DNA of 12,555 nucleotides from a virus (Duplodnaviria; Heunggongvirae; Uroviricota; Caudoviricetes). A model generated the notes under the pieces. It saw nothing but the letters and a program-made list of their open reading frames with translations. It was not told the DNA's origin and ran no database searches. The DNA lies in the IMG/VR virus record IMGVR_UViG_2606217107_000010, positions 1 through 12,555 of that record, one strand, 5' to 3'. Made by a program: the position numbers and the translations under genes. Positions 6,960 to 12,555 of the stretch are shown here, piece after piece (position 1 is the stretch's first letter; each line of letters starts with the position of its first letter).

Positions 6960-7219
6960 GGTTCTTTCCACCATCTGAAAAATGATTCTTTAAAATACCT
7001 GACATGTAATACAGAAAAAACACAAAACCATACCTTAAATAAAAACCTCATCATCAAGCAGATATGCATGGATAAACTACAAGACGAGATATAAACCACC
7101 CTGCATTTAAATAAACAATAAACAACATCAGAAAAATAATTCTGCTCTATGGTTTACAATCAAAAATATCATTTATACTTTTCAGAACATCACCAGCAAG
7201 GCATAAACAAGGAAACTAA

Positions 7220-7555
7220 ATGAAGTGGATTGTGATTGATACAGTTATCCAGCCATCATGCGGAATATCTTTTTCAGTCATATGGAGTAAAATAAAATTA
7301 ATAATCTGGTATCAATCGGATGCTTTCTTACCTCCTGAAAGTATATTTACACTGACTCACACAGGCATCATGCTCAATAACAAAGTGCTACCTGTAACCA
7401 TTTACAACGTAGTACCATTCAATAAAACATTCTGGAATTTAATCAAAAACAGCCAGGAATGCCCTACAAATACAGATAACGTATTGAATGAATGCTTTAA
7501 TAACCGTTGCACTCTGCAAATATGTCCTTATGGGCTAAAACAACAAAGTCCATAA
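7220..7555 (+). CDS. hypothetical Cys-containing protein (111 aa) in an AT-rich slot, antisense to the late operon
   Basis: ATG at 7220 with SD GGAA 5 nt upstream; low-GC codon usage; five Cys residues; no family recognised. Could be a spurious ORF in AT-rich non-coding DNA. Confidence 0.25.
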
Positions 7556-7575
7556 GGAGTTTACTCACATCTGAC

Positions 7576-7610
7576 AAAATCAATATAAACAGCCCCTCCG
7601 GAGAGGGGCT
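7576..7610 (-). terminator. intrinsic terminator-like hairpin downstream of the tRNA cluster
   Basis: Stem AGCCCCTC (7591..7598) pairs with GAGGGGCT (7603..7610), loop CGGA; on the minus strand it is followed by a T-rich run (complement of 7576..7590). Confidence 0.45.
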
Positions 7611-7846
7611 GGAGAGTGGCGCTATGTGCCATTGCATGGTGCCGGGTGCCTCCCGGTGAATTCAGTACCAGCACCTGAATCCGCGATTATCCCATATACC
7701 TACTCGCTGATTGCCCCTCCGCACAGGGGGATTCACCATGCCAGTTTCTTTTAACAAACTCCCCGCAAACCAGACAACAGTCAACCGCCTGAATTGTGAG
7801 ACATTTAAAAAAAAGGCCCACAAAAGCGAGCCAGGGAAAATAAGTG

Positions 7847-7923
7847 TGGCGCGTTGTACTGGATTCGAACCAGTGACCGATTGCTTAGAAGGCAATTGCT
7901 CTGTCCGGCTGAGCTAACAACGC
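7847..7923 (-). tRNA. tRNA-Arg (anticodon UCU)
   Basis: Manual fold of the minus strand: GCGTTGT-TA-GCTC-AGCCGGAC-AGAGC-A-ATTGC-CTTCTAA-GCAAT-CGGTC-ACTGG-TTCGAAT-CCAGT-ACAACGC-G-CCA. Cloverleaf with T-loop GGTTCGAATCC, anticodon loop CU-UCU-AA, and encoded CCA. Confidence 0.85.
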
Positions 7924-7936
7924 ATGATGCAGATAA

Positions 7937-8013
7937 TGGACCGCCATCGGGGACTTGAACCCCGCGCAACCAGCTTCGAAGGCTGGCGCTCTTTCCTGAT
8001 GAGCTAATGGCGG
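7937..8013 (-). tRNA. tRNA-Arg (anticodon read as UCG)
   Basis: Minus strand CCGCCAT-TA-GCTC-ATCAGGAAA-GAGC-G-CCAGC-CTTCGAA-GCTGG-TTGCG-CGGGG-TTCAAGT-CCCCG-ATGGCGG-T-CCA. Canonical stems; anticodon assigned by manual folding only. Confidence 0.75.
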
Positions 8014-8020
8014 TATGTGA

Positions 8021-8096
8021 TGGTGGCCCTTGCTGGATTTGAACCAGCGACCTGGCGATTATGAGTCGCTCGCTCTCACCACTGAGCTAAAGGGCC
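8021..8096 (-). tRNA. tRNA-Ile2 / Met-like (anticodon CAU, ileX/ileZ-type)
   Basis: Minus strand GGCCCTTTAGCTCAGTGGTGAGAGCGAGCGACTCATAATCGCCAGGTCGCTGGTTCAAATCCAGCAAGGGCCACCA; nearly collinear with my recollection of E. coli ileX (lysidine-modified CAU reading AUA). Confidence 0.85.
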
Positions 8097-8145
8097 GGGA
8101 GCAGAATAATAATGGTGCGTAATTAATTCTGCAATCTCATCCGTT

Positions 8146-9195
8146 TCAAACGATTAAATCCTGAACTTCCCTGACTGTCTGCTCAAAACGTCCGGTCTCC
8201 AGTTCAACGCCAATCGCACGACGCCCGAGCGCCAGTGCAGCTTTTACCGTTGAACCTGAGCCCATAAAAAAATCTGCAACCAGGTCTCCCGGACGACTGC
8301 TTGCGCTGATTATCTGCTGCAGCATTTCTGCCGGTTTTTCGCACGGATGTTTCCCGGGATAGAACTGCACCGGTTTATGTGTCCACACATCCGTGTACGG
8401 CACCTGCGCCGTCACACCAAAATACCGCCGCAGATGCTTATATTCACTCTGCAGCTCCACATACTGCCGGTTCAGTGACGTATACGTATCCACCAGCTGG
8501 TGGTGGGGCTTTTCCAGTTCACCGCGCTGATGTTTCTCTTCTGCCACCCGGGCAAACAGCGACTGTAATTTCAGATAATCGCTTTCGTTCGGTAGCTGCC
8601 ACTGACTGGCACTGAACCAGTGCGGCACCATGTTTTTCTTTCCTGTGGCATCTGCAATCTGTTTTGCCGTTATCCCCAGGGCAGCGCGCGCATCACGAAA
8701 GTAAGCAATCAGCGGGGCCATCACATGCTGTTTCAGTGCCCTGCCCTTCGCCTCATACCCGGCATCTTTCGGACGATACGGCCCCTGATAATGTTCCGCG
8801 AACAGAATGCGCTCTGTGGCGGGGAAATACGCCCGCAGGCTTTCCTTGTTGCATCCGTTCCAGCGTCCGGACGGCTTCGCCCAGATAATATGGTTCAGCA
8901 CACTGAAGCGTTCACGCATCATGATTTCGATATCAGATGCCAGGCGATGACCACAGAACAGGTAAAGACTTCCGGCAGGTTTCAGCACCCGCCAGAACTG
9001 CGCCAGACACTGGTCCAGCCACTTCAGGTAATCATCGTCGCCCTTCCACTGGTTATCCCAGCCCTCGGGCTTCACTTTAAAGTACGGCGGGTCCGTGACT
9101 ATCAGGTCAACAGAATTTTCGGGTAACGACCGGATAAATTCCAGGCAGTCGGCGTTGATTAACTCACAACTGGATATTTTTACAGTATTAAGCAT
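8146..9195 (-). CDS. DNA methyltransferase (beta-class N6-adenine/N4-cytosine MTase, DPPY motif), apparently orphan
   Basis: 349-aa ORF with motif IV DLIVTDPPYF near the N-terminus and motif I FFMGSGST near the C-terminus (beta-class order). No adjacent restriction endonuclease ORF. Confidence 0.9.
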   Translation of the reverse strand: MLNTVKISSCELINADCLEFIRSLPENSVDLIVTDPPYFKVKPEGWDNQWKGDDDYLKWLDQCLAQFWRVLKPAGSLYLFCGHRLASDIEIMMRERFSVLNHIIWAKPSGRWNGCNKESLRAYFPATERILFAEHYQGPYRPKDAGYEAKGRALKQHVMAPLIAYFRDARAALGITAKQIADATGKKNMVPHWFSASQWQLPNESDYLKLQSLFARVAEEKHQRGELEKPHHQLVDTYTSLNRQYVELQSEYKHLRRYFGVTAQVPYTDVWTHKPVQFYPGKHPCEKPAEMLQQIISASSRPGDLVADFFMGSGSTVKAALALGRRAIGVELETGRFEQTVREVQDLIV

Positions 9196-9333
9196 GGATC
9201 ATTAAGCCTGTCTCTGATAGGCTCATTCTGCTTTTGCGCAAAGCAGATGGGCCTGAGGTTTGCTTGTGACCCCAACGCATGAGCAGATGGCTGGCAGGTG
9301 CCGCTAACACCCACCAGCCGCCCATTACCACAA

Positions 9334-9359
9334 ATAAAAAAGCCTTCAGGGCTGAAGGC
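9334..9359 (-). terminator. intrinsic terminator overlapping the stop codon of the small upstream ORF
   Basis: Stem GCCTTCA (9342..9348) pairs with TGAAGGC (9353..9359), 4-nt loop; A-run at 9334..9341 on the plus strand gives a U-run after the hairpin on the minus strand. Confidence 0.5.
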
Positions 9360-9543
9360 GTCTGTAACAACCGAACTGATAATCTGCCAGACCCGCCATA
9401 ACAAGCTGAGTCAGTATTAACTGGCAGCGTTCACGTGAAAGGTAAGTATTCTGCGCAATTTCCCCGACAGTCGCCGGTTCGGTGACGCTCAATTCATTAA
9501 ACACCACTCTGGCGGTTTCGGTCATATCTTGCTGTTTTAGCAT
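9346..9543 (-). CDS. small hypothetical protein, possible winged-helix DNA-binding fold (65 aa)
   Basis: MLKQQDMTETARVVFNELSVTEPATVGEIAQNTYLSRERCQLILTQLVMAGL...; start chosen at the ATG at 9543 with SD AAGGGAAA (six-frame ORF begins at 9567). Helix-turn-helix-like segment TVGEIAQNTYLSRERCQLIL. Fold assignment is speculative. Confidence 0.45.
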   Translation of the reverse strand: MLKQQDMTETARVVFNELSVTEPATVGEIAQNTYLSRERCQLILTQLVMAGLADYQFGCYRRLQP

Positions 9544-9664
9544 GTCTTTTTCCCTTCTGGTTAACATGACATACCAATAACTCTTGTCTAAAAAGCCAGC
9601 AAGATAAAAAGTCAGTATTCACGACCACCAGCGTGTTTACTGTACTGCACCAAGTTTACAGGTA

Positions 9665-9688
9665 CAAAAAACCCGCTCAGTGGCGGGG
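9665..9688 (-). terminator. intrinsic terminator-like hairpin, candidate tR' of the late operon
   Basis: Stem CCCGC (9672..9676) pairs with GCGGG (9683..9687), loop TCAGTG; the A7 run at 9665..9671 gives U7 immediately after the hairpin on the minus strand. Confidence 0.45.
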
Positions 9689-9822
9689 TTAAGTTGTGTG
9701 GCGAAGTAACCACTCTTAACAGATTAAGATAAAATTTGCGGACCGCGGTAATTTTTTTTGCTAAATTAAAGCCATATAAAAAATAAGATCCATAAGAAAT
9801 TATTAGTATACTAAGGTTTAAC

Positions 9823-10764
9823 ATGGCTACTATTGCGCAATCAAAGAAACAAAAAAAACTTAAAATTGGTTTTTACACCAGCAGTTCTGGGACTATCCGC
9901 AGCCATTCAGTTGCTAAGCAAGCAATTGAAAATCTGTATAATACTTGCGTAACCGTTACGAATAATCATTTTGATACCATCTATAGAAATAAAAAGTTAA
10001 AAATAGCTTTTATAAATAAAGATACAAAAGCTAAATATTTCTTCGGCTACATGTCATGCTCACGAGAAGAGTATCTCCTTCCTTATATTGGTGATGAACA
10101 CTGGAATGAGCACAACATACCACTAGATGATAAAAAATACATAGTCGAAAGAACCTATTTTTTATATTATTACGATAGTGATATTTTAATATTAACTCAA
10201 AATCATCTTGGGCCGAAAGAATCGGATTTAGCTTATCTGCTTTACAGCCAGAGTGGTAATCCTGGAAATAACTTTTCATTCCAAGCCATCTGGAAAAAAG
10301 AGAGCGTCAAAGAGCTACTTGAAACAGGAAGTACTTTGAGAAGTTGTGATATTGTCCTGGCTGCTCCCAGGAACTTTGATGCAACAAATTACCAGCTAAA
10401 TAGTTCATTTTCTAAGGAACTGGTAAATATGATGGTAGGGCTGGGTGGAACACGTCTCAAGTTAAATCTAAGGGGACGTGCATCAGGGAGAGTAAAAGTC
10501 AAAGGTTATTTATCAGATCTCGTTAAGGATGGTATTAAAGAACTCCTTGAAAAAATGCCGGGAATTGTAAAAAAAGCGGCAGTAACACAGCCCAAAAATA
10601 CCGTTGAACAAAGTCTTCTTGATCAGGTACTCATTTCAGAAAAAAACATATATACCGTTAATGGTTATGGCACTGATAGTGATGTTCTGCAAGCCATGAT
10701 TTCTGCTAAAATTGATAACAATGAATACCTTAAGCAATACGATATCAGCAAAAAGAAGGTATAG
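9823..10764 (+). CDS. hypothetical soluble protein (313 aa), first gene of a low-GC two-gene insert; possible RexA-like sensor
   Basis: ATG at 9823 with SD AAGG 6 nt upstream; strongly AT-rich codon usage, unlike the flanking phage genes; opposite strand to the late operon. By-eye motif resemblance to my recollection of lambda RexA (GFY near the N-terminus; LDD...GPxxSDLxxxL block). Unverified. Confidence 0.8.
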   Translation: MATIAQSKKQKKLKIGFYTSSSGTIRSHSVAKQAIENLYNTCVTVTNNHFDTIYRNKKLKIAFINKDTKAKYFFGYMSCSREEYLLPYIGDEHWNEHNIPLDDKKYIVERTYFLYYYDSDILILTQNHLGPKESDLAYLLYSQSGNPGNNFSFQAIWKKESVKELLETGSTLRSCDIVLAAPRNFDATNYQLNSSFSKELVNMMVGLGGTRLKLNLRGRASGRVKVKGYLSDLVKDGIKELLEKMPGIVKKAAVTQPKNTVEQSLLDQVLISEKNIYTVNGYGTDSDVLQAMISAKIDNNEYLKQYDISKKKV

Positions 10765-10767
10765 GAT

Positions 10768-11211
10768 ATGTTATTGAAATACTTAAGAAACCTGATTGTA
10801 AGTGTTTTTTGCACCTTGTTCCTACTGAGGTATATCCCTCAGATGGGGCATGCTGACATACTTACAGCCTCCGGGGTTATTTCAACTGTATCCGGTATTT
10901 TATTTGGTTTTATTTTAGCCACAATATCAATTTTTAGTGCTGCTAGCGAAAACTCAAATGGAATAATAAAAGCATTAAAAAACAACAACATACTTCAAGT
11001 TATTATTGTAAATCTATTAACCGCAGGTGCATCTTTAATTACGGCATGCGTTATTGCTTTGATAGCAATGTTTGCCAATGAAAAGACATTGTTACATGGA
11101 GAAAAAATAGAATTTATTTTAATTATCGAATCTTTATCTCTTCTTATCATTTCAGTAATAACTTTTGCCTTTACATGGAGAAAAGTAAACTGGATACTCC
11201 CCCACATTTAA
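10768..11211 (+). CDS. hypothetical four-TM membrane protein (147 aa), second gene of the insert; possible RexB-like effector
   Basis: ATG at 10768, 3 nt after the stop of the upstream gene, with SD GAAGG. Four hydrophobic segments (about residues 8-22, 33-58, 74-101, 113-136). A LRYIPQ motif before TM2 recalls FRHYIPG in my recollection of lambda RexB. Confidence 0.8.
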   Translation: MLLKYLRNLIVSVFCTLFLLRYIPQMGHADILTASGVISTVSGILFGFILATISIFSAASENSNGIIKALKNNNILQVIIVNLLTAGASLITACVIALIAMFANEKTLLHGEKIEFILIIESLSLLIISVITFAFTWRKVNWILPHI

Positions 11212-11234
11212 AAAGGGCAGAAATGCCCTTTTTT
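11211..11234. terminator. bidirectional intrinsic terminator between the convergent insert operon and gene Q
   Basis: AAAAGGGCA-GAAA-TGCCCTTTTTT: stem 11215..11219 pairs with 11224..11228, GAAA loop, with an A-run before and a T-run after. Serves both the plus and minus strands. Confidence 0.65.
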
Positions 11235-11597
11235 CTACTCCATTTCAAGTTTAACATCCAGCATTGAAAGGCATCCATCAATAAACCCTTCAGCCATCTG
11301 TATCTCTATACGTATCAATTTCTCATCTTTTTTGCGAGCTCTTGCAAGCTTTCTTTTCGAGATGCCATACAGGTAATGGGCCACAATCAAAGAATGCTCG
11401 TACGGTTTTCGCTTTTTAAGAAGAGCAAGACAACCTTCAATAATTAATGCATCACTATCTGAACAAGCCTGACGTGTTTTGCTTGTATAGGGAAGAAGCC
11501 CTTTAAACCCAGCAGCTATAGGAGAATAGTCTACTCCTGAACTATCACTCGCCGCCCATGCTCCCCAACGATCCAGAACCATTTGAATATCACGCAT
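11235..11597 (-). CDS. Q: late-gene antiterminator Q (phage 21 / Stx-phage Q family)
   Basis: MRDIQMVLDRWGAWAASDSSGVDYSPIAAGFKGLLPYTSKTRQACSDSDALIIEGCLALLKK...; N-terminus matches my recollection of Q proteins of Stx/21-like phages. Start at the ATG at 11597 with SD GGAG; the six-frame ORF has a TTG at 11612. Confidence 0.85.
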   Translation of the reverse strand: MRDIQMVLDRWGAWAASDSSGVDYSPIAAGFKGLLPYTSKTRQACSDSDALIIEGCLALLKKRKPYEHSLIVAHYLYGISKRKLARARKKDEKLIRIEIQMAEGFIDGCLSMLDVKLEME

Positions 11598-11614
11598 CAA
11601 CTTTCTCCACAAAA

Positions 11615-12532
11615 TCAGGCCAGCACGCCAATTGCCAGCGCACGATCGATAAAACGAAATATCAGCTCCAGTTGGGAACCATACTTCTCTTCAAATGCCA
11701 CGGTATCCGCATGCAGTTCGTCATGGTGTTTTCTGCACAAAGGCAACACAAAAAGGTCATGCGCTTTTGTACCCATTCCACCCTGACCATGACCAATCAG
11801 GTGATGAGGATCGTCGGCTGGCTTACCACAACATGCACACGGCTGCGTCTTAACCCAGCGCGTGTACTTTTCATTAACCCAGCGACGACGTTTTGGGCGT
11901 AACATAAAAGACTCCGGCGACTCCGGATCCACTTTCAGCGCCAGCACCTTTTTCGCCTTATCCTGGATGATGCTGGTGGCAGTAACCGAAGGCACAAGGT
12001 CACTTTCCCGGGTGACAGACGGCACAACAGGCTTCGGTAATCTCAGGGCCTTACGGGCTGCACTTTCCGGTAAGGCATCCGCCAGATCATTACGAATCAG
12101 CCACCAGCACAGTTCCGGCATTGTCACAACGTGACTGTCATCAAAACCGAGATCCCGACGCACAACAGACAACACCCAGCGGGCACAGTTATCCGTTGCC
12201 ATTGATTCCAGCCGTTCCGTGAACTGATCGCGCAGCTGATTATCGCAGTGCCAGCACAGACGGATTGCACCCGGAGCGTGTCGCATTGTGGTCATGTTCT
12301 CGCTGTGCCAGTCGGAATGAGGCCACTGGCAGCCTTTTTCACGAAGTAACCAGCTTTCAAGACATTCCACGCCACCAGCACGACGGATCACTGCCTCATT
12401 GCGGAACACGGCCCGAACGGCAGGATCATCCGCCAGCGGTTGTGATGCCGCCGGAACGGCACCACTGGCGAAAGATGAATAACGCTCCGGCTCAGGCTCC
12501 AGCAGGACACGCCCCTGCATAAACAGGGGCAT
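11615..12532 (-). CDS. DUF968-domain phage protein (YdfU-like), upstream of Q
   Basis: C-terminal region RWVKTQPCACCGKPADDPHHLIGHGQGGMGTKAHDLFVLPLCRKHHDELH with Cys/His clusters typical of DUF968. The reading frame stays open upstream of the ATG at 12532 to the window edge, so the true start may lie beyond 12555. Confidence 0.75.
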   Translation of the reverse strand: MPLFMQGRVLLEPEPERYSSFASGAVPAASQPLADDPAVRAVFRNEAVIRRAGGVECLESWLLREKGCQWPHSDWHSENMTTMRHAPGAIRLCWHCDNQLRDQFTERLESMATDNCARWVLSVVRRDLGFDDSHVVTMPELCWWLIRNDLADALPESAARKALRLPKPVVPSVTRESDLVPSVTATSIIQDKAKKVLALKVDPESPESFMLRPKRRRWVNEKYTRWVKTQPCACCGKPADDPHHLIGHGQGGMGTKAHDLFVLPLCRKHHDELHADTVAFEEKYGSQLELIFRFIDRALAIGVLA

Positions 12533-12555
12533 CAGCTCTGAACCTGGTCTGAACA

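Follow-up and report, generated by a model that had tools for sequence, protein, structure and literature searches.

iraL and an STnc100-family small RNA gene beside an empty stx insertion point in the late region of a lambdoid prophage

Contents of the slot and the anti-adaptor gene iraL

The 12,555-nucleotide stretch analysed here (positions 1 to 12,555 of the IMG/VR virus record IMGVR_UViG_2606217107_000010, hereafter the window) represents the late region of a lambdoid prophage that reads in the minus-strand direction. Our subject is the slot at positions 6960-7846, which lies between a tRNA-Arg (TCT) gene on one side and a NanS-p-like esterase gene on the other. The slot consists of three adjoining units: the insertion point of the Shiga toxin (Stx) genes, a small RNA (sRNA) gene of the STnc100 family, and an antisense cargo position occupied by iraL. 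Very probably it constitutes the 'moron' region of a lambdoid phage, in which two known cargo genes of the lysogen, iraL and STnc100, form a convergent pair and the stx point is empty. A preliminary description had given the slot the same limits, which agree with the tRNA and esterase coordinates, and had treated it as one AT-rich cargo site that might hold a small protein or a non-coding RNA. Cargo of both kinds is present, but the site falls into three parts, and low GC content is confined to one of them. The 627 bp at 6961-7587 have a GC content of 0.327, against 0.482 for the whole window (0.6% of 627-bp segments are as GC-poor), whereas positions 7588-7846 reach 0.53. The AT-rich part is a replaceable plus-strand cassette, bounded by the start codon of the esterase gene and the 3' end of STnc100.

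The coding sequence of iraL (7220-7555, plus strand) comprises 111 codons and is preceded by a Shine-Dalgarno sequence, AAGGAA, 6-7 nt 5' of the ATG; the product contains five cysteines, at positions 14, 81, 92, 97 and 102. This open reading frame (ORF), with its ribosome-binding site and cysteines, had been recognised in the preliminary description. The protein is identical in 111 of 111 residues to IraL of the potB prophage of the uropathogenic Escherichia coli strain CFT073 (c1429, WP_000871291.1). Furthermore, it matches the NCBIfam model for the anti-adapter IraM (NF007393) with 162 bits against a cut-off of 121, over residues 1-110 and profile positions 1-113 of 114. On the strength of these matches, the ORF is iraL and its product an RssB anti-adaptor of the IraM family; c1429, formerly ycgW, has been named iraL (PMC12890032). 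The published evidence, from two-hybrid, pull-down and RpoS stability experiments, is that CFT073 IraL binds RssB and stabilises sigma S in log phase (Hryckowian et al. 2014, mBio, PMC4045071). Carried over from these published data to the identical protein of the window, RssB binding and RpoS stabilisation would be its activities as well. K-12 IraM (YcgW, b1160; PDB 8TWD) belongs to the same family and has the same fold; it aligns with IraL without gaps at 62% identity, and all five cysteines and the contacts to RssB's N-terminal domain are kept in IraL. The PHROGs match of IraL is phrog_4407, a group of unknown function, and PADLOC gave no defence-system match for the protein.

A PDB sequence search matches IraL to chain A of 8TWD, IraM bound to RssB, with an E value of 9e-32. 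In the AlphaFold2 model, the core of IraL (residues 1-80, pLDDT about 76-86) superimposes on 8TWD chain A with a TM score of 0.89 and a root-mean-square deviation of 1.3 Å, and the model reaches a TM score of 0.75 against PmrD (4HN7). The predicted structure is a PmrD-like antiparallel β-barrel plus helix. The crystal study of the IraM-RssB complex arranges the contact residues of IraM in three clusters, and the cluster facing RssB's N-terminal domain consists of I4, I6, W22, K26 and I42 (PMC10844676). All five residues of this cluster I are identical in IraL. Cluster II, which contacts the C-terminal domain of RssB, retains three of five residues and shows two conservative exchanges (T13S and L75I); cluster III (linker), counted with P66, likewise retains three of five, with the exchanges H63N and I64V. 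IraL has been reported to bind RssB's N-terminal domain only, whereas IraM binds both domains. The full conservation of cluster I, together with the changes in the other clusters, agrees with that report.

The C-terminal tail of IraL is modelled with a pLDDT below 50. The crystal structure of IraM with RssB was obtained with the tail cut off, and the tail is described there as less conserved and flexible (PMC10844676). Across 12-13 family members down to 54% identity, we observed that C81, P82, C92, C97, I101, C102, P103 and G105 are invariant (residues 81-102 correspond to window positions 7460-7525), while C14 is not. The pattern, CP-x9-C-x4-C-x4-CPYG, suggests a metal-binding or otherwise structured element in the tail, and the four invariant cysteines might form a metal-binding element that is important for function.

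The iraL promoter and transcription start lie at 7153-7187 on the plus strand, with a -35-like TTTACA at 7153-7158, a -10 element, TATACT, at 7174-7179 and the published start, obtained by rapid amplification of cDNA 5' ends (5' RACE), at 7187. The 5' RACE sequence of CFT073 is identical to window positions 7187-7216 in 30 of 30 bases, and the start lies 33 nt 5' of the ATG. The 266 bp at 6960-7225, which end just within the coding sequence, are 97% identical to CFT073, and the -10 element is intact. Expression data come from other strains: a fur mutant of CFT073 has raised levels of IraL protein, a temperature shift to 37 °C increases iraL mRNA, and in O104:H4 a gene annotated as 'iraM' is elevated in an rpoS start-codon mutant. 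The O104:H4 strain HUSEC2011 encodes IraL.

A PhoP-box-like direct repeat, TGTTTA-N5-TATTTA with one mismatch, is situated at 7108-7124 on the minus strand and precedes the transcription start of iraL by 63-79 bp. Three such boxes occur in the window, against 3.65 expected by chance, and PhoP control of iraL is not claimed here; the repeat is no more than a pointer to possible control by Mg and PhoP, as in iraM. For K-12 iraM, control by Mg starvation and PhoP is described in the literature. The K-12 gene shares DNA homology with iraL in the coding sequence only (71%), has a different promoter and lacks an STnc100 neighbour. The idea that the K-12 locus is a relic of the same prophage module was rejected on the restricted homology and the lack of a nearby STnc100.

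The STnc100 gene, the stx insertion point and related phages

An STnc100-family sRNA gene (Rfam RF02076) lies at 7581-7770 on the minus strand, which is the strand of the late operon. The covariance model matches over its full length (model positions 1-206 of 206) with 132.4 bits against a threshold of 47 (E = 1.4e-29), and on this match we assign the segment to the STnc100 family, possibly as a PasD-type variant. At the 3' end, the hairpin at 7590-7611 forms a Rho-independent terminator on the minus strand, composed of a 9-bp stem (7611-7590) with 7 GC pairs and the T-rich tail TTTATATTGATTTTG. A further hairpin, at 7715-7729, is an internal stem of STnc100. The two hairpins listed in the preliminary description (7591-7610 and 7710-7730) are real, and both belong to the sRNA gene. 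In one internal hairpin, the window copy is about 14 nt shorter than the model, and the copy of phage 933W scores higher (208 versus 132 bits). The sRNA gene is situated downstream of the stx site and just upstream of the sialate esterase gene, as it is in 933W, in Shigella phage 75/02 and in phage 1717, and as published. In 933W it lies 74 nt after stx2B in our Rfam scan, and its location downstream of stx2B in that phage was already known (PMC12370729). The PasD sRNAs of enteropathogenic Escherichia coli are Hfq-dependent and related to STnc100.

Two side observations concern this gene. In identical records (DLI.5a, CFT073 and HUSEC2011), PGAP places a pseudogene, 'hypothetical protein, incomplete', at the equivalent of 7626-7751 on the plus strand, antisense inside STnc100; it is probably an annotation artefact. 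In addition, two STnc100 copies in tandem orientation are found in strain JKHS016 (L010, 7681-7890 and 8168-8358) and in phage vB_EcoS-640R1 (L008, 7622-7810 and 8086-8279).

On the far side of STnc100 from iraL, the stx insertion point (7804-7805) is empty. The intrinsic terminator of the tRNA cluster (7807-7832, minus strand; stem 7832-7815 followed by a run of eight Ts) is the element annotated in 933W as the terminator upstream of stx, and nothing but this terminator separates the last tRNA from STnc100. The homology of 933W and 1717 to the window skips their 1.33-kb stx2 cassettes between 7806 and 7803, so that the tRNA terminator lies on one side of the inserted cassette and STnc100 on the other. 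In 933W, the order is Q, PR', ileZ-argN-argO, terminator, stx2A, stx2B, SASA esterase and holin, and the layout that the preliminary description had given for Stx phages (methyltransferase, tRNAs, slot, esterase, holin) is borne out by it. Window positions 8145-7806 are 93% identical to the tRNAs and terminator of 933W, and positions 7803-7633 align with sequence that starts 42 bp beyond the stop codon of stx2B; the STnc100 region is 71% and the esterase start 85% identical. 933W carries a 1332-bp stx2 cassette at 7806/7803, where the window has none, and has AsxR where the window has iraL. The Stx2c phage 1717 is colinear with window positions 6802-7803 over 1033 bp (70% identity) and matches 7806-8134 with its tRNAs (90% identity); its 1333-bp stx2c cassette is the only structural difference. 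Colinearity with both phages extends over both flanks of the stx cassette.

In the slot, tblastn revealed no similarity to Stx1A/B or Stx2A/B, blastn gave no match to either stx cassette, and the ORF list contains no minus-strand ORF of toxin size; stxA and stxB do not stand between the phage tRNAs and the esterase gene. The absence of toxin genes, as read from the ORFs in the preliminary description, is supported by these searches, and the BLAST comparison with Stx phages and toxins that it had proposed returned no stx match and flanks colinear with 933W and 1717. Its placement of the AT-rich cargo at the stxAB position does not hold: stx inserts at 7806/7803, and iraL lies beyond STnc100, antisense, at the position of AsxR or AgvB. 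At the stx point, where the window has nothing, a segment of about 640 bp that contains a small DUF3927 ORF is present in CFT073 (L003, 22555-23209) and in O104:H4 HUSEC2011 (L009, 5552-6247). Given this segment, the stx insertion point is a general variable site.

Between the two states that had been proposed for the toxin site, empty or decayed, the alignments point to an empty one, because the junction is clean relative to 933W and 1717 and the stx2 cassette is all that structurally sets 1717 apart. That stx was once present and has eroded to AT-rich junk with a chance ORF is next to impossible, even though the flanks are colinear with those of Stx2 phages and the region is AT-rich. The slot has no stx-derived protein or DNA similarity, and the junction is clean to about 2 bp (7806 to 7803). 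Moreover, the AT-rich part lies beyond STnc100, away from the stx site, and encodes a protein identical to a characterised one, which occurs in 1446 of 5426 complete E. coli genomes (1419 at no less than 95% identity). We rejected the decayed toxin site after the tblastn and blastn searches with Stx proteins and stx cassettes had returned empty-handed. A less remote, though still improbable, alternative concerns STnc100: the product of 7581-7770 could be not a stand-alone sRNA, but a structured 3' end or terminator module of a tRNA, stx or late transcript, or else a PasD-type variant with other targets. This would account for the lack of a convincing sigma-70 promoter ahead of 7770, and a conserved TTGAC(A/T) box precedes the 5' end of the Rfam model by only 9 nt; PasD and STnc100 are also reported to be related and easily confused. 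It fits less well with a covariance-model match that is full-length and far over threshold, with the independent terminator at 7807-7832, which cuts STnc100 off from the tRNAs, and with the experimental detection of STnc100 RNA in vesicles of Shiga toxin-producing E. coli (PMC12370729). Convergent Hfq-bound sRNAs have, in addition, been mapped at the same position in enterohaemorrhagic E. coli (EHEC).

The antisense position facing STnc100 holds AsxR in 933W, AgvB in phage 75/02 and an IraM-family gene in 1717. The AsxR and AgvB RNAs of EHEC prophages measure 51-60 nt and act as sponges for the core sRNAs FnrS and GcvB; they occupy this antisense site, convergent with an STnc100-type sRNA, between the moron coding sequence and the esterase gene, whereas the window has a protein gene there. 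The Rfam models of AsxR and AgvB (RF02703 and RF02702), which match 933W and 75/02 at that position, have no match in the window at E ≤ 1. Tree et al. (2014) described an order in which a moron coding sequence downstream of PR' comes first, then convergent sRNAs and then a conserved phage ORF, and sRNA pairs at this prophage position were recovered from EHEC as Hfq-bound RNAs (PMC4104026). The iraL cassette is swapped for other DNA in JKHS016, 933W and phi296. The exchange in JKHS016, which overall is the window's closest relative, covers exactly positions 6961-7587, and the replacement includes the second STnc100 copy. The cassette has the attributes of a phage moron: it is a discrete insert of deviant GC content (0.327 versus 0.48-0.53 around it) with a transcription start at 7187 and an adjoining hairpin, and it varies between colinear phages.

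The IraM-family genes of phage 1717 (gp43), phage 2851 and LC159 share the position and orientation of iraL, antisense between STnc100 and the esterase gene. The 1717 protein has 107 amino acids, compared with 111 for IraL, is 75% identical to IraL and 65% to IraM, and falls into a separate, third clade. Its gene (L011, 5001-5324) is located about 300 bp downstream of stx2cB. The clade, seen in 1717 and 40 other phage records, is carried by Stx2c phages and by part of the Stx2a phages; the literature searched yielded no functional study of it. As stx2c and an IraM-family gene occur together in 1717, iraL and stx are neighbours and not alternatives. Judged from these alignments, the place of iraL is that of the anti-sRNAs and not that of stx, and a phage can carry both stx and an anti-adaptor gene. 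The comparison shows IraM-family genes to be recurrent protein cargo of one antisense late-region position, convergent with STnc100 and interchangeable with AsxR and AgvB. The CFT073 potB prophage has the same neighbours as the window (three tRNAs upstream, STnc100 and an esterase/DUF1737 gene). It differs in the segment of about 640 bp with the DUF3927 ORF, which stands between the tRNAs and STnc100, in an IS200 upstream of the tRNAs and in a truncated esterase gene.

Among the complete E. coli genomes, the whole slot is present at a coverage of at least 80% in 1428 (about 26%). This number nearly equals that of genomes with iraL, and iraL therefore occurs almost always in this context. The slots of strains DLI.5a and TOE17 are 100% identical to that of the window. 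The K-12-type iraM was found in 3937 genomes and the phage-1717-type gene in 236, mostly O157:H7. The phage collection contains 46 records with a gene for an IraM-family protein; four of them carry IraL at 98% identity, and 41 encode proteins at 60-80% identity, of which almost all among those listed are Stx2 phages.

Neighbouring features of the late region

Upstream of the slot in the reading direction, the minus strand encodes a DUF968 protein (11615-12532), the antiterminator Q (11235-11612; Pfam Phage_antitermQ) and a DNA methylase ORF identified by domain search (8146-9195). Three tRNA genes follow on the same strand: an ileZ-type tRNA with a CAT anticodon (8021-8096), an argN-type tRNA-Arg (TCG, 7937-8013) and the argO-type tRNA-Arg (TCT, 7847-7923). 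The first of these is called tRNA-Met by ARAGORN and tRNA-Ile (ileZ) by PGAP on an identical gene and in the 933W record, a discrepancy of naming with the sequence unchanged. The NanS-p-like SASA carbohydrate esterase gene that closes the slot (5103-6959, minus strand) encodes DUF1737, SASA and DUF6645 domains. Its ORF as called spans 5103-6974, and the start is probably at 6959, judging from homology to the 933W gene and from the PGAP annotation of a 100% identical record. The esterase gene is followed by genes for a P21-type holin, a DUF1327 protein, lysozyme, Rz and the small terminase subunit.

A strong intrinsic terminator on the late-operon strand, at 4992-5020 (minus strand; 12-bp stem, then TTTTTATTGTT), lies within the 150-nt gap between the esterase gene, which ends at 5103, and the holin gene, which starts at about 4952. 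No Rfam family matched at this terminator. The prophage sRNAs PasA and PasC have been reported between the sialate esterase and holin genes, which corresponds to its position. Between the lysis genes and the HNH/terminase genes, a 113-codon ORF (1736-2077, minus strand) encodes a TonB C-terminal domain; the label given to it in JKHS016 is 'TonB family protein'. The ORF looks like a further small cargo gene of the late region.

A second AT-rich module (9760-11238, GC 0.34) is antisense to the late operon. Its insertion site is exact, with the end of Q on one side and, on the other, the sequence that lies 3' of Q in JKHS016. The module contains two plus-strand ORFs, encoding a 313-residue DUF6731 protein (9823-10764; phrog_7651) and a protein of 147 residues without a Pfam family (10768-11211; phrog_8552). 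Neither ORF has a PADLOC match, and DUF6731 is unmentioned in the literature searched. The module is rare, with 25 occurrences in the 5426 genomes, and is also found in the CDT-I converting phage cdtI; the eight records listed with it are all from swine or wild boar, six of them enterotoxigenic E. coli. It could be a defence or lysogenic-conversion cassette.

Proposed role of the cargo in the lysogen

We postulate the following organisation and mechanism, building on the identity of the protein and of its transcription start, the fold, the conservation of RssB contacts, the match to an RNA family and the colinearity with Stx phages established here. Along the late operon, the three phage tRNAs and their terminator are followed by the unfilled stx2AB point. 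The STnc100-family sRNA is then encoded on the late-operon strand and ends at its own terminator, and iraL faces it from the plus strand, within the 627-bp AT-rich cassette, where it would be under its own sigma-70 promoter with the start at 7187. IraL, as a small PmrD-like β-barrel protein, would bind the adaptor RssB. Bound by IraL, RssB would not deliver RpoS (sigma S) to ClpXP, and RpoS would stay raised in the lysogen even in exponential growth. Both genes would be expressed in the source strain of the window, iraL from the uninduced prophage, and at induction, Q-antiterminated late transcription may run antisense through iraL.

Several observations weigh against parts of this account. 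The window differs from CFT073 at three bases near the iraL start, one in the spacer between the -35 and -10 elements, one at -1 and one in the 5' untranslated region, and TTTACA lies only 15 nt from the -10 element. A generic promoter scan of the window called neither the iraL promoter nor one for STnc100. Downstream of iraL, the only hairpin is that of the convergent sRNA gene at 7590-7611, and it lacks a T-run when read on the plus strand. Neither IraL nor K-12 IraM was assigned a family in the Pfam-A scans, with E values up to 10 allowed, although a protein database gives PF11183 for relatives of IraL. For the sRNA, the z-score of the minimum free energy of the region is modest (-1.5), and there is the possible confusion of STnc100 with PasD.

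It may also be asked whether iraL benefits the phage more than the host. The gene could be mainly phage-serving, through RpoS- or RssB-dependent tuning of induction or maintenance; late transcription could shut iraL off, or iraL transcription could damp read-through into the lysis genes. We regard this as unlikely, as the published phenotype is host-level RpoS stability in uninduced cells, yet the two views are compatible rather than exclusive. A benefit to the phage would be in keeping with the placement of iraL and its relative in Stx2c phages, which are invariably oriented against the late operon and lie between PR' and the lysis genes. Similarly, there is no plus-strand terminator downstream of iraL, so that the iraL transcript may continue through STnc100 and the tRNAs in the antisense direction. 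StxS, an sRNA of the late region of Stx phages, also raises RpoS (PMC7547250), and by that token RpoS is a recurrent prophage target.

The account of iraL as cargo acting on the RpoS of the lysogen might extend to toxin-carrying phages. It is possible, at somewhat less than even chances, that Stx2c and Stx2a phages with an IraM-family gene also provide their lysogens with an RpoS-stabilising protein, which would be switched off at induction by antisense Q-driven late transcription. The contents of the slot are themselves all known already and mostly annotated, as PGAP names IraL, STnc100 is curated and its position beside stx has been published. The useful outcome is a correction of the map, with three units, a cleanly empty stx point and iraL at the antisense position. 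As a whole, the arrangement presents iraL as prophage cargo that would raise RpoS, as StxS likewise activates RpoS in the case of Stx phages, and the corrected map points to the IraM paralogue in Stx2c phages.

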